A program made the position numbers and the translations under genes. Below are positions 6,393-22,763 of a stretch of 32,000 bases of DNA, in pieces. The notes beneath the pieces were generated by a model that did no database searches, was not told the origin of the DNA, and was given only the letters and a program-made list of their open reading frames with translations. The DNA is from Candidatus Helarchaeota ASGARD archaeon Hel_GB_B (lineage in GTDB: Archaea > Asgardarchaeota > Lokiarchaeia > Helarchaeales > HEL-GB-B): assembly GCA_005191425.1 (NCBI GenBank), contig SUPR01000033.1:1-32000 (forward strand). Reading direction: 5' to 3'. Position 1 is the first letter of the stretch, and every line of letters begins with the position of its first letter.

Positions 6393-7967
6393 TCAACTTT
6401 TAAATTTTGCTTTTTTTTCCGCTTGAAAATTATATAATTCCTTTATATCCTTAAGGGAACTTATTTCATTTACAGATTTGTCATTTCTAATATTTTTAAT
6501 TCTTGCAAACCTTAATGCATAACCGCATTTATATTTTGAACTCTTTTGAATTTCATTAAAAATTACTTCAACTACTATTTCAGGGCGGACAAATACAGTA
6601 TTTTTTATTTGTTTTATTTTTAAATTCAATAATTTATTAGTTAATTCATCAAATTCTTTATCAGTTAAGCCTTTAAAGGTTTTACCGACCATTTTAAATG
6701 ACTTTTGGTCTTTTACTGCTAGGTGATAATTACTGAGCCATTTATAACGACGCCCAGAACCCCAGTCAGCAGCAATAATAACAAGGTCTAGACTATATTC
6801 TTTTTTAAATTTTAACCACTCGTTATTTCTAGTACCTAAATAATATTTACTATTAATTTTTTTAGCAATTATTCCCTCATTGCCTGAACTTATTGATTTT
6901 TGGAAAAAATTATCGATACTATTAAGGTCTGTTTCTATTATTGAGGACGCCATTTCTAGTCCTCGTGAAATTTCGTTCAGTTTGTTTTTCCTCTCTATTA
7001 ATGGTAAATCAATTAATGGATTGCCATTAAGGTATAAAATATCAAAGAAAATGATCTTATATGCATAATTTTCGGAAGAAGATTTAAGATTTTTCTTAAT
7101 TATATCTTGGAATGAAAATGGTCGGTTTAACTTATCTACTTTAATTAATTCTCCGTCCAAAATTACAGTTTTCGCATCAATGAGATGTTGTAAGTTAGAG
7201 ATTAGATTTTTAAAACTATTAGTAATATCATTGAGTTTTCGAGTATATAGTTTGATTTTATTTCCATTTTTATGTAATTGTATTCTAATTCCATCATATT
7301 TGTATTCAAAAATCGTTTGATTAGTATGCTTTTGTAGGATTTCTTGAATACTCGTTGAGATTCTTGCAAGCATTGGTCTGACTGGTGTAAAAACTTGAAT
7401 TTGTATTTTTTTAATTGCATTTATTCCTTCATTTATTGCTTTAAACCCAATTTCTCCAATATTTCCAGAGATCATATATGAATTTCTAAGAAAGTCATAA
7501 TCAATTTTTGATGCCTTTGCAATTGCTTGTAAAATAATACCTTCTGAAGCCCCTAACCTCAAATTTCCAGTAATAATGTTAAACAAATATCTTTTTTCAA
7601 CTTCAGATAATTGCGAAAATAAGCTTAATAATAGTTTTTTCTTTTCTTTTACTGAATCTTTACCTGAAATTTCAGAAATTTGGTGTAATGAGCTGTAAAT
7701 ATCATTGATATAAATTTCTTTTTTAAAAAGGACTTTTTGGTCTTTAAATTGAGTTAATAAATTAACAATCGAATTATAACTTAAATTTAATGGCTTGTTT
7801 GTTTTGTCTATAGAGATTCTTCCATTTAATAGAAGTATAAAATTTTTAATCTCATTTTTATCAAGTTTTAAAAGAAAATTTTTAATCAATTCAACTTTTA
7901 TAGTTTGTTTTGCTTGTTGCTCTAAATCGATGCATAATTTTGTAAAGTCTAAAAATTTAGTAGGAAT
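6393..7967 (-). CDS. lig: ATP-dependent DNA ligase
   Basis: Adenylation motif I EYKYDGIR, plus DGELI, EGIIAK and NEWLKFKK. The tracked ORF starts at TTG 7889. The frame stays open for 26 more codons back to ATT 7965-7967 and encodes the expected N-terminal helix (PTKFLDFTKLCIDLEQQAKQTIKVE). Confidence 0.9.
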   Translation of the reverse strand: MPTKFLDFTKLCIDLEQQAKQTIKVELIKNFLLKLDKNEIKNFILLLNGRISIDKTNKPLNLSYNSIVNLLTQFKDQKVLFKKEIYINDIYSSLHQISEISGKDSVKEKKKLLLSLFSQLSEVEKRYLFNIITGNLRLGASEGIILQAIAKASKIDYDFLRNSYMISGNIGEIGFKAINEGINAIKKIQIQVFTPVRPMLARISTSIQEILQKHTNQTIFEYKYDGIRIQLHKNGNKIKLYTRKLNDITNSFKNLISNLQHLIDAKTVILDGELIKVDKLNRPFSFQDIIKKNLKSSSENYAYKIIFFDILYLNGNPLIDLPLIERKNKLNEISRGLEMASSIIETDLNSIDNFFQKSISSGNEGIIAKKINSKYYLGTRNNEWLKFKKEYSLDLVIIAADWGSGRRYKWLSNYHLAVKDQKSFKMVGKTFKGLTDKEFDELTNKLLNLKIKQIKNTVFVRPEIVVEVIFNEIQKSSKYKCGYALRFARIKNIRNDKSVNEISSLKDIKELYNFQAEKKAKFKS

Positions 7968-8110: not shown

Positions 8111-9082
8111 TTAAAATAACTTTAAACCCTTAGGTAAGTTCCCAAAATTCTTTTCAAATCTATCAAAGAAGTTTTCTTTATCAAATAAATGACCTTGTCC
8201 GCCTGCATTCTCCACAATATAAGATCCAACTACGGATCCAACTTTACAACAATCATAAAGATCAATGCTATCGACGATTCCGGATAATAGCCCAGACCGA
8301 TAGCCGTCTCCTGCTCCTGTTGGATCTACAATTTTATTTGGTTTGGCGACACCAATTTCAGATTTTTCACCATTGTCATATAGAATAGACCCTTTTTCGC
8401 CTAACGTAATAATTAATTTTGGAATTTGAGAAATTAATTTGCTTTTAGTATAATTTAAGCGCCTTCTTAATAACTCAAATTCATGTTCATTGACAATAAG
8501 AAAATCAATAGTTTTGACCAATTCATTTAATTTTTCTTGAGAGAATTGACCAATTTGCTGGCCTGGATCAAAAATTTCCGGGATTTTCAGACGTTTTAAT
8601 TGATAATGAAATGATTCCATAGCATTAATAGGATTAGGTGCATTTATAGATATTTTTATATTATCAAATTGAGATATCTTGCGGAATAAATTAATTTTAT
8701 AGGCGTTTTTTAAAGCTCCCGCATAAAAAATAATAATCTGATTCTTATTGGTATCAGCAGTAATATAACAACGAGCCGTAAAATCGTTTTCAGAAACATT
8801 GAACCTTAAATCAACTAATTTCGACTGCAGTATATTGGGATAGTTAGTCTGAAAAAAATCTTTACCAACGCTTGAAATACTGATCGAGTGCCTTTTCAAA
8901 AGACCGAGACTATAACAAATATTTCCAGCAGTCCCACCATATCTTATTTGATGCGAATCGACTACTAATGCCATTTGCATATTTGTTTTGTTGTCTGATA
9001 CAATTTGATTTAAAAAAAGGTCATTAAATTGCATGATATAATCAAAAGCAATAGACCCAAGAACGAGAATATTATTCCTCAA
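8111..9082 (-). CDS. PfkB-family carbohydrate/nucleoside kinase
   Basis: GGTAGNICYSLG (PfkB signature 1 region) and DPTGAGDGYRSG (signature 2). TTG start keeps the ILVLGSIAFD N-terminus. Confidence 0.8.
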   Translation of the reverse strand: MRNNILVLGSIAFDYIMQFNDLFLNQIVSDNKTNMQMALVVDSHQIRYGGTAGNICYSLGLLKRHSISISSVGKDFFQTNYPNILQSKLVDLRFNVSENDFTARCYITADTNKNQIIIFYAGALKNAYKINLFRKISQFDNIKISINAPNPINAMESFHYQLKRLKIPEIFDPGQQIGQFSQEKLNELVKTIDFLIVNEHEFELLRRRLNYTKSKLISQIPKLIITLGEKGSILYDNGEKSEIGVAKPNKIVDPTGAGDGYRSGLLSGIVDSIDLYDCCKVGSVVGSYIVENAGGQGHLFDKENFFDRFEKNFGNLPKGLKLF

Positions 9083-9142
9083 CTATGTCATATCCAAATT
9101 TTTTAAATTAAAAGGTCGAATCAGTTTTAAAATTAATATAAA

Positions 9143-9577
9143 TTATTTTATAATAACATCGGTAATATTGAAATGCCTTTTTGCAAGCATTCTAGCTTTA
9201 GCGATATTTCGACCATTTTTACCAATTGCAATTCCTCTATCTCTACTATCTACATAGATATTTGCAATTTGTTTATTGTCCCGAGAATTATTTATAATTA
9301 TATTCTTTACTCGAGCCGGCGCCAAAGTGTTTTTTAAAAATTCTTCAGCGTTCGGGGCATATTCAACTACATCAATAGTTTTCTTTAAAAATTCACGAGC
9401 TCTTCTAATATTGGCACCTTTTTTACCAATTGCAAGTGCAATATTTCCCGGATTTACTACAAAAACTATTCGGTCATCATCTTCATCGATTATACAATCT
9501 CTTACAGATGATCCTGTTATACTTTCAAAAATCGATATAAATCGAATCTCATTTCCACCAAGTTTAATGCTGGCCAA
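9143..9577 (-). CDS. nusA: Archaeal NusA-like transcription factor with two KH domains
   Basis: Two KH GxxG loops (AIGKKGANIRRA, AIGKNGRNIAKA), 144 aa, located next to L30e and rpoA. TTG start. Confidence 0.85.
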   Translation of the reverse strand: MASIKLGGNEIRFISIFESITGSSVRDCIIDEDDDRIVFVVNPGNIALAIGKKGANIRRAREFLKKTIDVVEYAPNAEEFLKNTLAPARVKNIIINNSRDNKQIANIYVDSRDRGIAIGKNGRNIAKARMLAKRHFNITDVIIK

Positions 9578-9874
9578 TGTATTTTTACTCCAATTCCTTA
9601 AATTTTTTTATAAATAAATTACCAATTTGTTTATTTTTTTTAAATAACTTAAATTTTGATATTTAAAATTCTTTATGATACACATTTCTATTTTTTATCT
9701 TTAATAGGATATATAAAAAATATTCCATATTACTTTTTTATTAGTATTCGTTTTATAAATTAACAATGATTCTGACAAATTCTTCATAAAGTTTTAGAGA
9801 TTGTTACGAATATTTTCATAATAAATTACGAAATTATATTTTTAAATTTACTCATTTTTTTTAGGACATGGAAA

Positions 9875-10204
9875 TTATTCATTTTTTTCCAATAATTTTG
9901 TTATATCTGAGTCACCTTCAGATATTATCCCTAAAACTGAAATCATATAAGGTTTACCGCATAAAAAACCTAAATCTAAGCTTGATCCTTTGAACTCATA
10001 AATATCTATTTTTGGTTCAAATTCGTTACAATATTTGTAGATATCAGATGCGATATGGTCAGGACAATTACTTGCCTTAATGACCATTCTGACATTACCT
10101 TGTTTTATTGCTTTCAATGAGCGCTTACTACCAATAATTACTTTACCAGTCTTTAAGGTGATTCTAAGTGCGTTTTCTAAGTTAATGCTAGAATTTTGAC
10201 TCAT
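9875..10204 (-). CDS. rpl30e: 50S ribosomal protein L30e
   Basis: ALRITLKTGKVIIGSKRSLKAIKQGNVRMVIKASNCP...LGFLCGKPYMISVLGI matches the L30e/L7Ae fold pattern. It occupies the classical position downstream of rpoA. ATG 10204 is preferred over the tracked GTG 10213. Confidence 0.85.
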   Translation of the reverse strand: MSQNSSINLENALRITLKTGKVIIGSKRSLKAIKQGNVRMVIKASNCPDHIASDIYKYCNEFEPKIDIYEFKGSSLDLGFLCGKPYMISVLGIISEGDSDITKLLEKNE

Positions 10205-10617
10205 AATATTCACATTTTGTTAATTTTAAATAAATGTCAATTAAATTACTTGATTTTTAAATTTTTAAATAGAATATTTTTGAATTTTATTACAAGATTA
10301 TCATTATTAAAGTTTTATTTCAATTTGATAAAATTGTAATCATTCTAAAAAATTTTTCTGAAATTATTTAGATTTTGAATTTTAGATAAATTTTAATGGT
10401 TAGTATAAATTATAAAGAACAATTTAGGTTATAATTATTTCTAATGTATGAATTAGCATAATTAAAATTTATCTATCAACCAGTTTTAAAGGATCATTAT
10501 GTTAAGTATTTTAAACGTTGATTTTAGGTCAAATATAAGTAGTATTGAAATATAAAAAGCAAAATCATTTTAAAAAATATAAGAAAAAAGTTATGAGAAA
10601 ATATTTGACCAAAAAAC

Positions 10618-13600
10618 TTATTCATTTTTAGCTGGGGGTTTAGGGGGCATTACTAATAAATCAATATTACCAGTCCCTAGTGGTATAATCTGGCCAATAA
10701 TTACATTTTCTGTGATACCATTTAATGGGTCAATATCGCCTCTTAAACTTGCGTCTAATAAATGTTTAATAGTAATTTCAAATGAAGCTCTAGCAAGTGC
10801 TGATGCTTTTTTACCACTTATCCCATGACGCCCAATTTGTCTTAGATTTCCAGTGTTTGTCATTATATCAGCAACGAGCATTATATGTCGTATATCAACA
10901 TCGAGTCCTTGTTCATCTAATACACCTAAAGCCTCGTTAATAATAGCATTTCTACATGCTTCTATACCGAGGACTTCATATATTTCTCGTAAATGGTTTG
11001 TAGTAGTCCTAGTATGGTCAACTCCCTTTACTAATAAGACTTCTTTGAGATTAGTACCTTCAGAATGAATAACATATTCATCAATATCTTTTTCTTTACG
11101 AATTATTACTCTTTTTATGCCTTCAATACCTTTTATTGGGAAATCTTGGATATTTTCTTTTTCTTTTTGAAGTTTGTCTAAATCGCCAGCTTTAGGTTTA
11201 TAAATAATTTGATTTCTTGTCTTAAGAATTTTAACCTCGCCTTTTTTCTTCCAGTCCTTGGTTTTAGCCTCGATTATATCATATGTAATTCCTTTGTCCT
11301 CCATCAATGCGGGGTCGAGCTCGATAATAATTTCCATATTTGCGATATCAATGGCGATATGATCAGCAATATTTTCAATCCTTGTCAATTCAATTTTTTG
11401 TGATATTTCTTTTGCTATATCTTTATTTTTTGCAATATTTTTCTCGAGAAATATTTTCATCATTGGAGTGCTGGGTATTCGTCTTGCATCAACAATTTCT
11501 ATTAACCTGGGTAGACCTAAAGTAACATTAAACTCTGCTGCTCCTGCATAATGGAATGTTTTAAGAGTATTATGGGTAATTAATCCTTCAGATATCGTGA
11601 AAGTTTCAAGTCCACCTACTGTAAAATCGTAGACATATTCGGTTGGTGAATCTATTAATTCAATATTTGTAATTTCGTCCCAAATAATGTCACTTTTAAT
11701 AGACTTCTGTAAAACAGAAAGTTCTTCATTTATATCAATGTTTTTCTCCCTTGAAAATACCAAAAGTTTTTCAACTAAATCATTTAATATGGATCTTTTA
11801 ATTATTTGCTTCTCTATAATTCTATTGATATTTTTTCCTAATTCTGAATCATTTGAAATTAGGAGTTTTTCCTTAATAGTTTGAAATATTGGTCCAAACC
11901 CTGTTATAACGTCAAAATCACCATAATTGGACTCAAATTTTTTAATTTTATTGATCAATTTTGAAAATTTCTTTAATTCTTTAGGATTAGATATTTTGGT
12001 ACCAATTTCATTAAGAAAAGATATTATATGCTCTTGGTGAATTAATAGGGTATATTGACCTTTTCTATTCATTTTAAATGAGGGAATACCGATTCTTGAT
12101 AATAATAAACAAAGTTTATCCCTTAATTCTTTAGAGTTAGAACTCAACTCTATTTGACATTTCTTAATATTTATTTTACCTTTAAAATCAAAATAGCTCT
12201 TCAACAAACCCTTGATAAATGTATCGTCAGAATTAATGACCCAATCGGGGATTATTTTATTATTATTCAATTCCCAGTTAATCTCGAAGATTTCAGCCAA
12301 TTTACTTGAAGTAATTATGATTTTCTTTTCTTTTTTATAATAATCTTCTAATTTATAGTTAAGTCCATGTTCTGATATAAACTTAGTAATCATATCGGAA
12401 TTGATTTTATTGTTAATTACAATAGAAATTTTATCGCCAGAATTTTTCCCGTTAGCAAGATAAGCTCCAGTAAAATAGCCAGTCATAAAGTCTAATTCCC
12501 ATTTATTTACATAGGAATTATAGCTATTGGAATCGGAAGTATTATTTAATTGAATATTATTTTTAGTAAATACTTGAGAGCTCCCAAAGTTTGTTGATAC
12601 CGATAGTAATTCTACTTGAAAATTATCTTCATTTATTATCGTTTGATTATTATCCATTATTTTTTCTGAGTTATCAATTCCTATTGATATTTGATTTGAT
12701 ACATTTTTGTTAAAATCAATTACTTTTAGAGGGTTTTGCGCGGGTAATTTTTTGACTAAAGGAATTCTATCACCAATTTTCAAATCTTTACCCTTAATAG
12801 GGATGATATTATTATTTTCTCTAATGACAAATGAATGAGATAAAGTAGAAGAAATAGTCCTACCGCTTTTTGTAGATATTTTGACAAGTTTTCCATTAGG
12901 TAGGTGTCGGCTTACTTGTAACAATAGTTGCCAATGAACATGTTCATCTTTTCCTAATGAAGGTACAAAGATTGTCATATTTTTTGGGATATCACAAATA
13001 GTTGACCCGAAGCTTGTAAAAACATTATCAGAATTGGATAGTCTTGTTATTAATTTATCGACAAATTCTCCAATAGGAGTTATAAGTGCCCTATTTTCTT
13101 GAAGAATAATTACTTTTTCATTTCCAGGAATACTCATTTGAGTGCCGGGTTCACCAATTGATTGTGCTGCCACAGTACCGACTGCTTCTCCCGGGTCTAC
13201 CAATGCTTGTTTATAATAGTTTATGGAAATATCAATTATGTTGTTAAGTATTTTTTCAGTAACTTGAATTTTTTCTAATGCACTAATTAATTTATTTATT
13301 ATAGAGTAAGGAAGCTTATTGGAATCATATTGAAATTTTAACCTAGATGCAATTTCTTCATTTGATAAGACAGGAGTTTCGTCATCTTCAATCTCACTTA
13401 ATACTTTTTCAATGACAATACCAATATTAAAAGCGATGCCATGGTCGCTTTTTGCGGGATCAATTCCATCTTCGCCATATTGAAATTGGATTATGTCTCC
13501 GGCAGCATTTCTTACGGTTCCATCGTATTCTACTTTAATATCTTGAAGCGCATTAATCAATCTTCGTTGCATATAACCGCTTGTACTTGTTCTGACTGCA

Positions 13601-16600
13601 GTATCCACAAGTCCTTCACGACCGCCCATTGCATGGAAGAAAAATTCGATTGGTGTTAAACCGCTATAATAACAATTAACGACAAAACCATGAGCTTTTG
13701 CGCTTAAATCCTCTTTTCTAAAATGAGGTAATGTCCGTTTCTTATAACCCCTCATAATTCTAGCTCCTCTAACAGATTGTTGCCCGACACAAGCAGTCAT
13801 TTGTGCTAAATTTAAAGTATTACCTCTTGCACCAGTTTTTGTCATAATCACAGCATGTTTATCAATTCCCAAATATCGGCCAGCAATATCGCCTGCTTCG
13901 TCTCTTGCTTTTGATAATGTTTCCATTATACGCATTTCAAGAGTGTCCTCTAATGTCCTACCGGGCGCACGTTGTAATTCGCCTTGTCTATATGTTTCAA
14001 TAAAATTGTTTACTTTTTTATCTGCTTCATTTAAATTGTATCTAATTCTATTTTTCGCTTCTTCTTGTATTTCAACATCATCGATCCCCATAGTGAACCC
14101 AATATTTGTGATTATTTCTATAATCATCCTAGCACATGAATCTAAAAATTGTCTGGCCCTTGTATTTCCATAATCTTTGACTATTCTATGTAATAAACTA
14201 TTTGGCTGCCCAGCTCCAAATGCTTTATTATCAATTACACCTGTAAGGAGTCTACCACGTCTAATTAATACATACGCATCATATGGGCACTCAAATTCTT
14301 GGCATACTTTACAATTTTGACATATCTTGGCCCTTAAAGATAAATTAAGATATTTTGGTAGAAGGATTGAGATTATTTGTTTTCCAGTCCAATATTGAGT
14401 TGGATATTTTATTACAGGTTCAGGAATTTCATAATGTTTTTTCTTTTTATCAGTTTGATATCCTGCAGCCATTAATAATTGACAAACAGTTTCTCTATCT
14501 AAAAGGTTGCTTTTTCTTGTTAACAAAAATGCTCCAGAGATATAATCTTGGATACCACCAATAATTGGGCCACCATATCTGGGAGATTCAATCTGTTCTT
14601 GAACTTTCATTAAAACTAAAGCTTCTGACCTTGCTTCTTCACTTTGCGGGACATGTAAGTTCATTTCATCTCCATCAAAATCTGCATTATAAGGTGGACA
14701 ATTTTTAGTTAAAAATTCTGCTGCAATGAAATTGTGATTTTCATCTGTTGTTGTAATATCATAAGCATAAGGAAGTTCAATTTCCTCGATTTTAACTATT
14801 TCGTCCCAAACAAAGCCATTATTCAGACCTTCGGTAGCCTTAATTTTCCAAGTAAAAAAATCAGGGAAATTTTTAAGTATATCAATATTTTTTGATTTAT
14901 CTTCGAATAAATAAGAAACTATACTCCACGAATCTTGACCTATCATTTCAGCAATTTCGTTATAATTAAATCCTTTATTTACTAATTCAACTACTTTTAA
15001 TGCTATCTCGTTAATTTCATTCTTTGTTCTGATTTTTGTTGTTAAATATTCAGTGATATGTCTGGCTAAAATTTCTTTTTCATTTGCGAATTCATATCCA
15101 ATATTATTGAAAAAAGCTAAAAAGTTTTCATCATCTGGTGTCAAATAGCATGAATATATAATTTTTTTAGGGTCATCTTTTTTTGAATTGATAATGACAT
15201 TTGAAATTTTTATATTAAAGATGTTAAGTAATTCTCTTATTCCATCTATGAATGGTTCAGGTGATATACCATCTATTTTTGTTATTTCAAAATATAATCG
15301 ATCGAATTCTTTGTTAGAATCAGAATTTAATTCTGGTAAAGACATTTTAGACCCGAAATATGCCCTTAAAAATGCTCTTTTTGCCATTTTTGGAGCTTGC
15401 ATAATCCATTTAGGTGTTGAATATTCTTGAACTGTTTTATCACCAACAGGCACACCTAAGATATTAAATGCTAATGCTAAAGATTTGTTTCTAATTTCAA
15501 AATAATATGTCTCATTATCTGGATTAACTGTTTTATCGTTAGTAATAAAATCAGATTTAAAGTTAAGTTTATTTATTTGAATAGGAATATCCGTTAAGTT
15601 CAAAGATTTAATAAGATCATGCATTGATTTTATATCATTTTTATTATTAGCCCTAAAAATGATTCTGGCATCATTTTCTGATATGTCTAAAGAGCCATTA
15701 CCAAATAAATGACCGACTAAGCTAGCTAATTTAATTTGCTTATCAGAACCTGCTTTAATATCAATTAAACCGAGTTGTTTTAATTCATTAAATATATAAT
15801 CGAAGTCAAAATTATCAGATAAAGCATTAGATATTTGTTGTTTTGTTAGGATATCTGGACATCCACCAATTTCTGGATATTCAATTGGATAAATAGCTAA
15901 ATAATCGCCTATTTTCAAATCACCACAATTTACTATCCCATTTTTTGAATAAAATGGATGTTCTTGTGTTGCCTCAATAATTCTATTATTTTTAGTAATG
16001 ATTCTAAAAGATTTAAGTCCGAGTTCTTTTGGTTTAATAATGTGAGATTTAGAGATTCCTGAATAGTAAGTTTTTTTATTAGTAGTCCAATTACAAGATA
16101 AGGGACTAAAATTGTTATGATTCTTAACAATTTCTGAGATTTTTACTTTACCAAGATTAGTAAAAAGATAAGTATCACCAGATAGACAGACGCAGAGAGA
16201 TAGTCTAAATGTTTTAAAAGGCATTACGACTACTTCATGTGCCATAATAGATAAACGATGTAAAGAAGGTTGCCTATTAAAAAGTACAATATCTTTATCT
16301 TTAAGATGCCGTTCTACAATGAAACCAGGTTCTAATATATCTGCAACTGCTTCTCTATTTTTTACAAATCTTAGATCAATACGATTACCGTCAGATCTTA
16401 TTACATAATTTGCGCCAGGATGTTTTTCGGGGCCTCTTATAACTATTTCTTTCATTTCTTCAATATTCCACTCAGTAACCCTCTCAGGAATAGTCAAGAC
16501 TTTAGCAATTTCCTCAGGAACTCCGACCTCATTAATACTAAGGTTAGGGTCGGGTGAAATTACAGTCCTTGCTGAGAAATCAACTCGTTTTCCTGATAGA

Positions 16601-17553
16601 TTACTCCTAAACCTTCCTTCTTTACCTTTTAATCTTTGGGATAATGTCCTCAAGGCGCGACCAGAACGGTGGCGAGCTGGAGGAATCCCAGAAACTTCAT
16701 TATCAAAATAAGTGGTAACATGGTATTGAAGTAATTCCCATAAATCTTCTACGATTAATTGAGGAGCTCCAGCATCGATATTTTCTCTTAATCTTTGGTT
16801 TATCCTAATAATATCGACTAATTTATGTGTCATATCATCTTCTGATCGAACTCCAGAGTCAAGAGTTATAGAAGGTCTAACGCAGACTGGAGGTACTGCA
16901 AGTACTGATAAAATCATCCATTCTGGACGAGCAAATTTTGGATTAATCCCGAGTAGTTTACAATCTTCATCTGGAATTCGTTCAAATCGGTCTCGAATAT
17001 CGCTGGGATTTAACCTAATAGTCCCGCTCTCGGTTTTTTCGTAATATGTTGTTGGTTTTTCAATCTTGATCTTAAGTTGTTGTTCATTACAATATGGACA
17101 TTTTTGGGTCTTAATTGCTTCTTTTAAAGCAATTTTAACAATATTTTTGTCCAATTCGCCATATTTACTTTCATAATCATTCATTTTTTGTAAAAGTTCT
17201 TCATAGAGGTCATTATTAAGCATGATTCTGCTACATTGACGACATATTGCTCGTAAAATTTTCTGAATTTTACTGGCGAACCCCACATGGATAACGGGTC
17301 GAGCTAATTCAATATGGCCAAAATGGCCCGTACATTCAGTTGTTCTATTACCACAAGTCCTGCACCTATGGCCAGGTTCAACAGTACCAAGACGTCCGTC
17401 CATTAGACCAGAGTCAATAGGAAGACCATCTTCGTCATAAGTATCGGGTGTAATTATACGGATATGACTAATTTTTCGGATATCTTCGGGCGAAAATAAT
17501 CCGAATTGGATTGATTTGATTTTTTTTAATGAATGGATAGGCATAACATTCAA
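10618..17553 (-). CDS. rpoA: DNA-directed RNA polymerase subunit A, unsplit A'/A'' fusion interrupted by two inteins
   Basis: Zn motifs (RCRTCG, CPYC), FNRQPSLHRLS, CPPYNADFDGDEMN, bridge-helix region (GREGLVDTAVRTSTSGYMQRR) and A''-type GEPGTQM..TLKTFHYAG all lie in one frame. The likely start is ATG 17544, preceded by AGGTTGA. The extein sums to about 1290 aa. Confidence 0.95.
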   Translation of the reverse strand: MNVMPIHSLKKIKSIQFGLFSPEDIRKISHIRIITPDTYDEDGLPIDSGLMDGRLGTVEPGHRCRTCGNRTTECTGHFGHIELARPVIHVGFASKIQKILRAICRQCSRIMLNNDLYEELLQKMNDYESKYGELDKNIVKIALKEAIKTQKCPYCNEQQLKIKIEKPTTYYEKTESGTIRLNPSDIRDRFERIPDEDCKLLGINPKFARPEWMILSVLAVPPVCVRPSITLDSGVRSEDDMTHKLVDIIRINQRLRENIDAGAPQLIVEDLWELLQYHVTTYFDNEVSGIPPARHRSGRALRTLSQRLKGKEGRFRSNLSGKRVDFSARTVISPDPNLSINEVGVPEEIAKVLTIPERVTEWNIEEMKEIVIRGPEKHPGANYVIRSDGNRIDLRFVKNREAVADILEPGFIVERHLKDKDIVLFNRQPSLHRLSIMAHEVVVMPFKTFRLSLCVCLSGDTYLFTNLGKVKISEIVKNHNNFSPLSCNWTTNKKTYYSGISKSHIIKPKELGLKSFRIITKNNRIIEATQEHPFYSKNGIVNCGDLKIGDYLAIYPIEYPEIGGCPDILTKQQISNALSDNFDFDYIFNELKQLGLIDIKAGSDKQIKLASLVGHLFGNGSLDISENDARIIFRANNKNDIKSMHDLIKSLNLTDIPIQINKLNFKSDFITNDKTVNPDNETYYFEIRNKSLALAFNILGVPVGDKTVQEYSTPKWIMQAPKMAKRAFLRAYFGSKMSLPELNSDSNKEFDRLYFEITKIDGISPEPFIDGIRELLNIFNIKISNVIINSKKDDPKKIIYSCYLTPDDENFLAFFNNIGYEFANEKEILARHITEYLTTKIRTKNEINEIALKVVELVNKGFNYNEIAEMIGQDSWSIVSYLFEDKSKNIDILKNFPDFFTWKIKATEGLNNGFVWDEIVKIEEIELPYAYDITTTDENHNFIAAEFLTKNCPPYNADFDGDEMNLHVPQSEEARSEALVLMKVQEQIESPRYGGPIIGGIQDYISGAFLLTRKSNLLDRETVCQLLMAAGYQTDKKKKHYEIPEPVIKYPTQYWTGKQIISILLPKYLNLSLRAKICQNCKVCQEFECPYDAYVLIRRGRLLTGVIDNKAFGAGQPNSLLHRIVKDYGNTRARQFLDSCARMIIEIITNIGFTMGIDDVEIQEEAKNRIRYNLNEADKKVNNFIETYRQGELQRAPGRTLEDTLEMRIMETLSKARDEAGDIAGRYLGIDKHAVIMTKTGARGNTLNLAQMTACVGQQSVRGARIMRGYKKRTLPHFRKEDLSAKAHGFVVNCYYSGLTPIEFFFHAMGGREGLVDTAVRTSTSGYMQRRLINALQDIKVEYDGTVRNAAGDIIQFQYGEDGIDPAKSDHGIAFNIGIVIEKVLSEIEDDETPVLSNEEIASRLKFQYDSNKLPYSIINKLISALEKIQVTEKILNNIIDISINYYKQALVDPGEAVGTVAAQSIGEPGTQMSIPGNEKVIILQENRALITPIGEFVDKLITRLSNSDNVFTSFGSTICDIPKNMTIFVPSLGKDEHVHWQLLLQVSRHLPNGKLVKISTKSGRTISSTLSHSFVIRENNNIIPIKGKDLKIGDRIPLVKKLPAQNPLKVIDFNKNVSNQISIGIDNSEKIMDNNQTIINEDNFQVELLSVSTNFGSSQVFTKNNIQLNNTSDSNSYNSYVNKWELDFMTGYFTGAYLANGKNSGDKISIVINNKINSDMITKFISEHGLNYKLEDYYKKEKKIIITSSKLAEIFEINWELNNNKIIPDWVINSDDTFIKGLLKSYFDFKGKINIKKCQIELSSNSKELRDKLCLLLSRIGIPSFKMNRKGQYTLLIHQEHIISFLNEIGTKISNPKELKKFSKLINKIKKFESNYGDFDVITGFGPIFQTIKEKLLISNDSELGKNINRIIEKQIIKRSILNDLVEKLLVFSREKNIDINEELSVLQKSIKSDIIWDEITNIELIDSPTEYVYDFTVGGLETFTISEGLITHNTLKTFHYAGAAEFNVTLGLPRLIEIVDARRIPSTPMMKIFLEKNIAKNKDIAKEISQKIELTRIENIADHIAIDIANMEIIIELDPALMEDKGITYDIIEAKTKDWKKKGEVKILKTRNQIIYKPKAGDLDKLQKEKENIQDFPIKGIEGIKRVIIRKEKDIDEYVIHSEGTNLKEVLLVKGVDHTRTTTNHLREIYEVLGIEACRNAIINEALGVLDEQGLDVDIRHIMLVADIMTNTGNLRQIGRHGISGKKASALARASFEITIKHLLDASLRGDIDPLNGITENVIIGQIIPLGTGNIDLLVMPPKPPAKNE
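11569..13134 (-). mobile_element. Intein 2 (522 aa) with a LAGLIDADG-type endonuclease domain, in the A'' part of rpoA
   Basis: Junctions are ...SIGEPGTQM|SIPGNEKVII...TISEGLITHN|TLKTFHYAG. Removing it restores GEPGTQMTLKTFHYAG. Block B is STLSHSF and block F/G is YVYDFTVGGLETFTISEGLITHN. DOD-like motifs are YFTGAYLANGKN and FIKGLLKSYFDFKGKI. Confidence 0.9.
14701..16188 (-). mobile_element. Intein 1 (496 aa) with a LAGLIDADG-type endonuclease domain, in the A' part of rpoA
   Basis: Junctions are ...FRLSLCV|CLSGDTYLF...NHNFIAAEFLTKN|CPPYNADFDGD. Removing it restores the conserved RLxLxVCPPYNADFDGD. Block B is ATQEHPF and block F is YDITTTDENHNF. DOD-like motifs are LVGHLFGNGSL and FLRAYFGSKMS. 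Confidence 0.9.
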
Positions 17554-17971: not shown

Positions 17972-18496
17972 TTATTTTTTACTTTTTGTTGATAACCGTT
18001 TTCCACAACTTGGGCAAGTGCCGTGAATCTTAAGATATTCAAGGAAGTGGTCTTTATGGGCAACTACACCACAAGCAGGACATTTTATCTTGACATCACC
18101 TGGTTTTATTATTCCTTTACAGACTGGACAAACTAATGGAACTTGTGATATTAAAAGTAATCTTTTTTCTGAATTAAACTTGGCACTTTCTAAATTATCT
18201 ATCCCGATGATAAATGGCTTTTGATTTTCTCTAGAATCCAAAAAAATTTCGATCCCCTTTTTTCCATCTCTACGGTCGCCTATCCATTTTACTGTACCTG
18301 AAATTTTTGAAACAGGAGAACCACTTTTAGAGATAGAGATTTCTGCTTTTAAAGGAGAATCAAAAATAAATGTCCTAAGTACTTTTGTTATTTCAAACGC
18401 TTCTTTAGTTCGTTCTGAATTTATAGCATTATTAATAGCCATTACTAATTTTTCTGGACCATTATCAATTAAGTTCTTAACATCAATTTCTACCAA
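17972..18496 (-). CDS. Hypothetical protein with a C-terminal RING-like cross-brace zinc module
   Basis: The C-terminus reads CPVC-x12-CPAC-x4-H-x2-H-x10-CPSC (residues 123-164). No motif recognised in the N-terminal 120 aa. Confidence 0.6.
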   Translation of the reverse strand: MVEIDVKNLIDNGPEKLVMAINNAINSERTKEAFEITKVLRTFIFDSPLKAEISISKSGSPVSKISGTVKWIGDRRDGKKGIEIFLDSRENQKPFIIGIDNLESAKFNSEKRLLLISQVPLVCPVCKGIIKPGDVKIKCPACGVVAHKDHFLEYLKIHGTCPSCGKRLSTKSKK

Positions 18497-22412: not shown

Positions 22413-22763
22413 ATGTTGCAATTTGAAACAAAAGTAATTAAAATTGAACCTACAGAAACTAGCGGAGTATCATTTATTTATTTCTCAAGCAATAAAGGCG
22501 AGTTAAAACTTGAATTGCCAGATAAAATAAATTATTTTACTAAAGAAGACGAAATAAAAATACGACTTGTAGATGAGGATAAACCAGAAGATGATGACAA
22601 ACTTTTTGTCAAGGGATTTATATATTCAAACACAAAAACAGAGAATGATAAAAGAATTATATTAATAAGTATTGGAGGTCTTATTTTTAAATTAGTCATG
22701 GAAGATAATTCAGAATTAACTAATCTTAAGCCAAAACGCGATATTTATATCGGCTTCAAATAA
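22413..22763 (+). CDS. rpoG: Candidate RNA polymerase subunit Rpo8 (RpoG/Rpb8-like)
   Basis: The C-terminal pattern KGFIYS...RIILISIGGLIFKLVMEDN...RDIYIGFK parallels the Rpb8/Rpo8 signature (YVMxGxxY ... SFGGLLMxL ... VYLLxKK). It is 116 aa, and AGGTG (22402-22406) lies 6 nt upstream of the ATG. Confidence 0.5.
   Translation: MLQFETKVIKIEPTETSGVSFIYFSSNKGELKLELPDKINYFTKEDEIKIRLVDEDKPEDDDKLFVKGFIYSNTKTENDKRIILISIGGLIFKLVMEDNSELTNLKPKRDIYIGFK

Follow-up and report, generated by a model that had tools for sequence, protein, structure and literature searches.

Inteins of RNA polymerase known in 2006 comprised Mja rPol A′, Mja rPol A″ and Nph rPol A″ (PMC1635734), and 14 inteins have been counted in archaeal RNA polymerase (COG0086; PMC4760082). 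Here we analyse a 32,000-nucleotide stretch of the genome of Candidatus Helarchaeota archaeon Hel_GB_B (assembly GCA_005191425.1, contig SUPR01000033.1, positions 1 to 32,000; the window), in which rpoA, the gene for the largest RNA polymerase subunit, holds two inserts that we call intein 1 and intein 2. An earlier note, made from the sequence alone, had placed a 496-residue intein just ahead of the catalytic NADFDGD motif of this protein. We find that this element, intein 1, is a new allele of an already catalogued intein in a new host lineage. Our preferred account, to which we give a probability of about 0.8, is that of a class 1 intein with a LAGLIDADG-type domain that belongs to an old allelic family; most likely it is fixed, is passed on vertically, and is a passenger that still splices but cannot home.

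The closest described systems are the RpolA′ inteins of Methanocaldococcus and their alleles, which share with intein 1 the insertion point and an arrangement of Hint splicing domain, LAGLIDADG domain and helical module. The comparison with them that the earlier note had proposed was made through the allele of a Methanocaldococcus sp. metagenome-assembled genome (MAG; allele L025), which lies at the same insertion point; a Methanococci MAG carries a further allele, L008. Judged from this shared site, intein 1 is allelic with the Methanocaldococcus RpoA′ intein. L025 has 452 residues and ends in Gly-Asn, the size and end that we take the InBase entry Mja RpolA′ to have. By contrast with L025, to which it is only 36% identical, intein 1 has Lys rather than Gly before its terminal Asn and resides in a fused A′ + A″ gene, unlike the host of the Methanocaldococcus allele. 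It is also alone in the family in having lost both acidic residues of its LAGLIDADG motifs. In the open-access literature we obtained no match for intein together with NADFDGD and did not find the exact Mja RpolA′ insertion site.

The insert in the active-site loop of RpoA

The host open reading frame (ORF) occupies 10618–17553 on the minus strand and has 2311 codons counted from its first TTG in the ORF list. The true start is likely the ATG at 17544, giving a 2308-residue precursor that is identical, residue for residue, to a protein in public collections; without both inteins the extein has about 1290 residues. NCBIfam equivalog models for RpoA′ scored 1419 and 1393 bits on the fused protein, and the intein-containing RpoA″ equivalog model PRK14898 scored 818 bits. 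Reading the coordinates of the insert on the plus strand was rejected, as that strand has stops throughout and the gene sits on the minus strand. The features of the gene and of intein 1 that bear on splicing are as follows; a slash marks a splice junction here and below.

10618–17544, minus strand: fused rpoA′/rpoA″, largest RNA polymerase subunit (ORF list, NCBIfam equivalogs, exact public protein match)
14701–16188, minus strand: intein 1, 496 residues, class 1, Cys1...Lys-Asn / Cys+1 (hidden Markov models (HMMs), restored host sequence, 35 alleles)
16150–16188, minus strand: block A, CLSGDTYLFTNLG, with the Cys1 nucleophile (TIGR01445 over intein residues 1–80; Cys1 in 28 of 28 complete alleles)
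15952–15972, minus strand: block B, ATQEHPF, Thr-x-x-His, intein residues 73–79 (allele alignment)
14701–14766, minus strand: blocks F and G, with the block F Asp and His, penultimate Lys495 and terminal Asn496 (TIGR01443, allele alignment)
14668–14700, minus strand: start of the C-extein, with the Cys+1 nucleophile and then the Mg-binding aspartate triad (translated sequence)

ORF residues 456–951 (TTG numbering) map exactly onto window positions 14701–16188, in agreement with the extent claimed by the earlier note, and the strings that it quoted, including GFNYNEIAEMIGQDSWSIVSYL, are all present in the ORF. The insertion falls between Val455 and Cys952 and puts Cys+1 four residues ahead of the N of NADFDGD, again as claimed; the intein-less rpoA site reads TTTAGACTATCTCTCTGCGTC/TGTCCTCCTTATAATGCTGATTTTGATGGT. 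Excision had been predicted to restore a conserved active-site segment, and the spliced junction indeed aligns without gaps to solved Pyrococcus and Thermococcus Rpo1N chains (E 8.5e-57). Residues 456–951 themselves do not align with ordinary RpoA, so the alignment named beforehand as evidence against an intein is absent.

Intein profiles recognize both ends of the insert. Pfam Intein_splicing (PF14890) scored 52.7 bits (E 5.5e-14) against a curated cut-off of 35.8 bits. The N-terminal model TIGR01445 (cut-off 24.5 bits) reached 50.9 bits over residues 456–535 when run on the full protein and 33.4 bits when run on the isolated intein, and the C-terminal model TIGR01443 reached 26.4 bits over residues 929–952 (cut-off 15.6 bits). 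The intein-containing RtcB model NF038162 (RtcB_rel_intein) aligned over all 496 residues with E 9e-64. The splicing residues are all kept in the window copy: Cys1, Thr-x-x-His-Pro, the block F Asp and His (YD...HNF), the terminal Asn and Cys+1. Each of the elements listed by the earlier note (Cys1, block B, block F, terminal Asn and Cys+1) was found and could be aligned with the 28 complete alleles. Cys456 (intein residue 1) and Cys952 (+1) are both conserved in all 28, and Thr-x-x-His followed by Pro occurs in 28 of 29 aligned copies (the alleles plus the window copy), the Halobacteriales allele L028 being out of register. The penultimate His, a common though dispensable feature of class 1 inteins, is replaced in intein 1 by Lys495.

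On this sequence evidence the insert at 14701–16188 is a genuine intein. We rejected a lineage-specific insertion of another kind, which the HMMs and the alleles contradict. A class 3 intein was discarded as well, given the presence of Cys1 and of an Asp instead of a Cys in block F; so was a sequencing or assembly artefact, since at least three independent assemblies have the identical sequence.

Splicing would follow the course of characterised class 1 inteins, on analogy with which the steps given here are based. After translation, an N–S acyl shift at Cys1 would be aided by the block B Thr and His; Cys+1 would attack the thioester in a trans-thioesterification; cyclisation of Asn496 would free the intein; and an S–N shift would form the Val-Cys peptide bond, building the loop that bears the polymerase aspartate triad. 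Because RpoA is essential, the insert lies in the active-site loop and all nucleophiles are intact, we infer that intein 1 is splicing-competent and that the polymerase needs it to splice.

The allelic family at the RpoA′ site

To place intein 1 among its relatives, we scanned a degenerate DNA pattern for the junction over one genome per species, 185,579 species in all. The pattern matched 45 species, 35 of which have an intein at this exact junction. The other ten matches were set aside as intein-free: in the RpoA′ of some Thermoplasmatota and Micrarchaeota, an Asn naturally precedes CPPYN. These ten (L006, L013, L023, L024, L033, L034, L036, L040, L042 and L047) have Asn for Val (FRLNLPN/CPPYN), and a motif-only search for the RpoA′ intein would give false positives in them. 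The 35 carriers include Archaeoglobaceae, ANME-1, Methanococci, the Methanocaldococcus sp. MAG, many Halobacteriales, some Thermoplasmata, and among Asgard archaea Promethearchaeota, Borrarchaeum and Atabeyarchaeia.

A family profile built from intein 1 and its nearest relatives gave 220–790 bits for 34 of the 35 alleles; the last, L021, is a 52-residue fragment that scored 49 bits. The 28 complete alleles have 446–511 residues, are 25–49% identical to the window copy and score 290–790 bits. Nearest to the window copy are the Asgard alleles of Borrarchaeum and Atabeyarchaeia, at 48–49% identity. Among the 120 nearest RpoA fragments of other archaea, 107 have an uninterrupted junction and none has an intein, and the empty site is therefore the norm in related lineages. 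The guanine-plus-cytosine (GC) content of intein 1 is 26.7%, that of the extein 35.0% and the window mean 28.7%; with a value close to the window mean, the intein thus gives no sign of recent transfer.

The earlier note had remarked on the penultimate Lys in place of His, unaware that no allele at the site has His. Ahead of the terminal Asn, 18 of the 35 alleles have Gly, 7 have Asn, 6 Ser, 3 Lys and 1 Arg. Because His is found in none, the penultimate Lys of intein 1 is, from the allele alignment, a family trait and no defect. The RpolA′ family thus dispenses with a penultimate His in splicing, or has to, and tolerates five different residues in its place. Inteins with Gly-Asn ends are exemplified elsewhere (PMC1635734), and splicing without a penultimate His is documented by Chen, Benner and Perler (2000), as judged from the title of that work (ref. 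74 in PMC4031507). Ssp DnaE and Ceu ClpP, like intein 1, have a residue other than His before the terminal Asn and are known to splice, and Lys is mentioned at this position less than Gly, Ala or Phe in His-less inteins. A second Asgard sub-group of alleles, from Promethearchaeota and related MAGs (L010, L026, L031 and L038), has block F YDNF rather than HNF, so that neither the block F His nor the penultimate one is present.

Intein 1 also belongs to a wider clade. An exhaustive profile search gave 340 cluster representatives at E < 1e-30; a word-indexed protein search gave only 6 relatives and understates the family. Many members of the clade end in Ser-Asn or Gly-Asn. Archaeal inteins of RtcB, ribosomal protein S12, RpoB and thioredoxin align with intein 1 over its full length, but they occupy other hosts and sites and so are non-allelic. 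The S12-borne relatives P0005 and P0006 are 27–32% identical to intein 1 over the whole length, and close relatives occupy the S12 site PNSAIRK/CVRVQL. The proteins examined (P0005, P0006, P0024 and P0026–P0033) also show other insertion sites of the clade: two in RtcB (DIN/CGVRL and GYGF/CIGGV), three in RpoB (ETPEGPN/CGLVKN, HWGKI/CPNETPEG and SPRNTYQ/SAMGKQ) and one in the CGPC active-site motif of thioredoxin (FWAxW/CGPC).

Endonuclease domains of the two inteins

A direct search of the PDB with the sequence of intein 1 gave only marginal matches, to MJ0781 (the KlbA intein, E 1e-3) and a VMA intein (E 3e-3). A fold search was therefore used. The AlphaFold2 (AF2) model of intein 1 has a mean predicted local distance difference test score (pLDDT) of 76.5 and a confident central domain, with about 85–95 over residues 150–400. 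Its top Foldseek match is the endonuclease-associated intein of T. litoralis VMA (TliVMA; PDB 7QSS, E 6e-13), followed by PI-SceI (1VDE, E 7e-6), I-SceI, I-AniI, bI3 maturase and WhiA, these further matches lying at E 1e-6 to 1e-4. The two VMA-type inteins are the best solved-structure matches and combine Hint and LAGLIDADG domains; they differ from intein 1 in their V-ATPase host and share only 11–18% sequence identity with it. The TliVMA and PI-SceI inteins have canonical His-Asn ends. Motif alignment and Foldseek place two LAGLIDADG helices in an alpha-beta-beta-alpha-beta-beta-alpha core. The features of this region, and intein 2, are as follows.

15688–15720, minus strand: LAGLIDADG motif 1, LVGHLFGNGSL, intein residues 157–167, with Asp replaced by Asn164 (codon AAT; allele alignment)
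15340–15372, minus strand: LAGLIDADG motif 2, FLRAYFGSKMS, intein residues 273–283, with Glu/Asp replaced by Lys281 (codon AAA; allele alignment)
14908–14973, minus strand: helix-turn-helix (HTH)-like helical segment 3′ of the LAGLIDADG core (AF2 helices 409–415, 421–432 and 436–440)
11569–13134, minus strand: intein 2, 522 residues, Ser1...His-Asn / Thr+1, in the trigger-loop motif GEPGTQM/TLKTFHYAG (Pfam, PRK14898)

The acidic residues of LAGLIDADG motifs bind the catalytic metal ions. In intein 1, the metal-binding acidic residue that closes each motif is absent. The position in motif 1 is Asp in 27 of the 28 complete alleles and Asn164 in the window copy, and the position in motif 2 is Glu or Asp in all 28, and in the S12-borne relatives, and Lys281 in the window copy. 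Each of the two codons is one G-to-A change away from GAT or GAA. Both residues are the same in three independent assemblies and so are not due to sequencing error. Because residues with an established metal-binding role are replaced, the LAGLIDADG endonuclease of intein 1 is probably inactive and the intein fixed, not mobile, in this lineage.

The earlier note had also pointed to an HTH-like segment, and this claim held in part. In the Ranarchaeia allele P0002, the corresponding part exceeds the cut-off of Pfam HTH_23 (27.0 against 24.6 bits) and also passes HTH_28, and the AF2 model of intein 1 has one long helix and then three short helices over intein residues 369–451. The window copy itself gave only sub-threshold Pfam HTH matches. 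WhiA, which consists of LAGLIDADG plus HTH, is among the fold matches (E 1e-5 to 1e-4). We interpret the segment as a DNA-binding module that belongs to the endonuclease and has diverged.

The probably dead endonuclease and the second intein of the same gene had both escaped the earlier note. Intein 2 scores 69 bits with Pfam Intein_splicing and 29.7 bits with LAGLIDADG_3, and at least 13 other species have alleles of it. Its site is occupied in many of the genomes that hold alleles of intein 1; the allele of the Methanocaldococcus MAG has 471 residues. Its LAGLIDADG motifs are degenerate (YLANG and YFDFKG), and its alleles keep Glu/Asp and GDG. At the level of its motifs, intein 2 shows an endonuclease decayed by double acidic loss, like intein 1. 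Alleles of the RpolA′ and RpolA″ inteins, first seen in Methanocaldococcus, thus occur also in Asgard archaea, within a fused rpoA. In this lineage the homing cycle has reached a late stage: both inteins keep their splicing residues, and the active sites of their endonucleases are lost.

Several points weigh against our account of intein 1 as a splicing-only passenger. Its splicing is predicted, and rpoA was assessed at this locus only. The profile check proposed by the earlier note succeeded for the splicing domain, matched at both ends, and failed for the endonuclease, the Pfam LAGLIDADG models giving no match on intein 1 at E ≤ 0.01; the endonuclease is assigned from the alignment of its motifs, from its fold matches and from intein-bearing NCBIfam models that match over the full length. 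The alignment underlying the AF2 model contains only 7 sequences, and pLDDT falls below 50 at residues 1–47 and 479–496, the two ends of the splicing domain. The link to M. jannaschii itself runs through the MAG of the same genus and the presumed size and end of the InBase entry.

Were intein 1 still mobile, its endonuclease would cut intein-less rpoA and drive homing despite the odd motif residues, and this would fit a domain that is full length, confidently folded in the AF2 model (pLDDT about 85–95) and still equipped with the HTH-like module; allele L019 likewise has Asn in motif 1. However, both acidic positions have changed together, one of them to a positively charged Lys, where 27 of 28 and 28 of 28 alleles keep Asp or Glu. 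Each replacement takes a single G-to-A transition, the kind of change that drift would bring in a genome of 28.7% GC, and intein 2 has the same double loss. Continued mobility is accordingly unlikely in our estimate. A dead domain kept at full length in both inteins could instead indicate co-option, either as conditional splicing, for example through a disulfide among Cys-3, Cys1 and Cys+1 whose redox state would gate maturation of the polymerase active site, or as an excised, nuclease-dead, WhiA-like DNA-binding factor. Three cysteines are indeed found at the two splice junctions or next to them (LCV/C...N/C), and the WhiA-like architecture emerges from Foldseek, with the E values given above. 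Yet it is common for an inactive endonuclease domain to be kept, since that domain is often needed for the splicing fold; Cys-3 belongs to the host consensus of many lineages, whether or not they bear the intein; and there is no between-strain variation in the intein that could reveal selection. We consider such co-option distinctly improbable, and slightly more so its extension to both inteins, by which the two nuclease-dead elements beside the RpoA Mg loop and in the trigger loop would be retained as useful, whether as maturation gates or as a WhiA-like DNA-binding factor.

Least credible of all is a decayed, non-splicing remnant in an rpoA pseudogene, or in a copy whose function another copy covers. 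The NCBI annotation, which has only a 1330-residue product from Met982 and leaves out the half with intein 1, could be taken to favour this, but a stop-free frame of 2311 codons is unexpected for a pseudogene at 28.7% GC, the splicing residues are all intact, the extein is highly conserved and several assemblies preserve the sequence. A fixed class 1 intein that splices and no longer homes remains the account that we prefer.

Gene model and neighbourhood

RpoA′ and RpoA″ form a single ORF here (10618–17544, minus strand). In most archaea the two are encoded separately; their fusion has been reported as a trait of Asgard archaea. The NCBI annotation of the same contigs gives only the 1330-residue protein, named 'subunit A″' (P0011 and P0012; window 10618–14610, minus strand), and the N-terminal 981 codons, with intein 1 and the NADFDGD loop, have no annotated protein in the NCBI records. 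The truncated gene model looks like a gene-calling artefact due to the inteins. Both inserts need excising before Helarchaeota RpoA is used in phylogeny or structure work, and the main value of intein 1 lies in annotation and as a textbook example.

Gene order near rpoA differs from the canonical archaeal rpoH-rpoB-rpoA-L30e-nusA-S12-S7. Upstream, a 174-residue zinc-ribbon/RING-like ORF (17972–18496, minus strand) stands in place of rpoB. The region downstream (8111–10213, minus strand) does contain L30e (9875–10213) and a NusA-like KH protein (9143–9577), and beyond the latter gene follow a PfkB kinase and an ATP-dependent DNA ligase (6393–7889). Elsewhere in the window, at 22413–22763 on the plus strand, a 116-residue protein matches Pfam RNA_pol_RpbG, an Rpb8-like polymerase subunit of eukaryote type; its gene adjoins those of an Lsm_C protein and a thermosome subunit.

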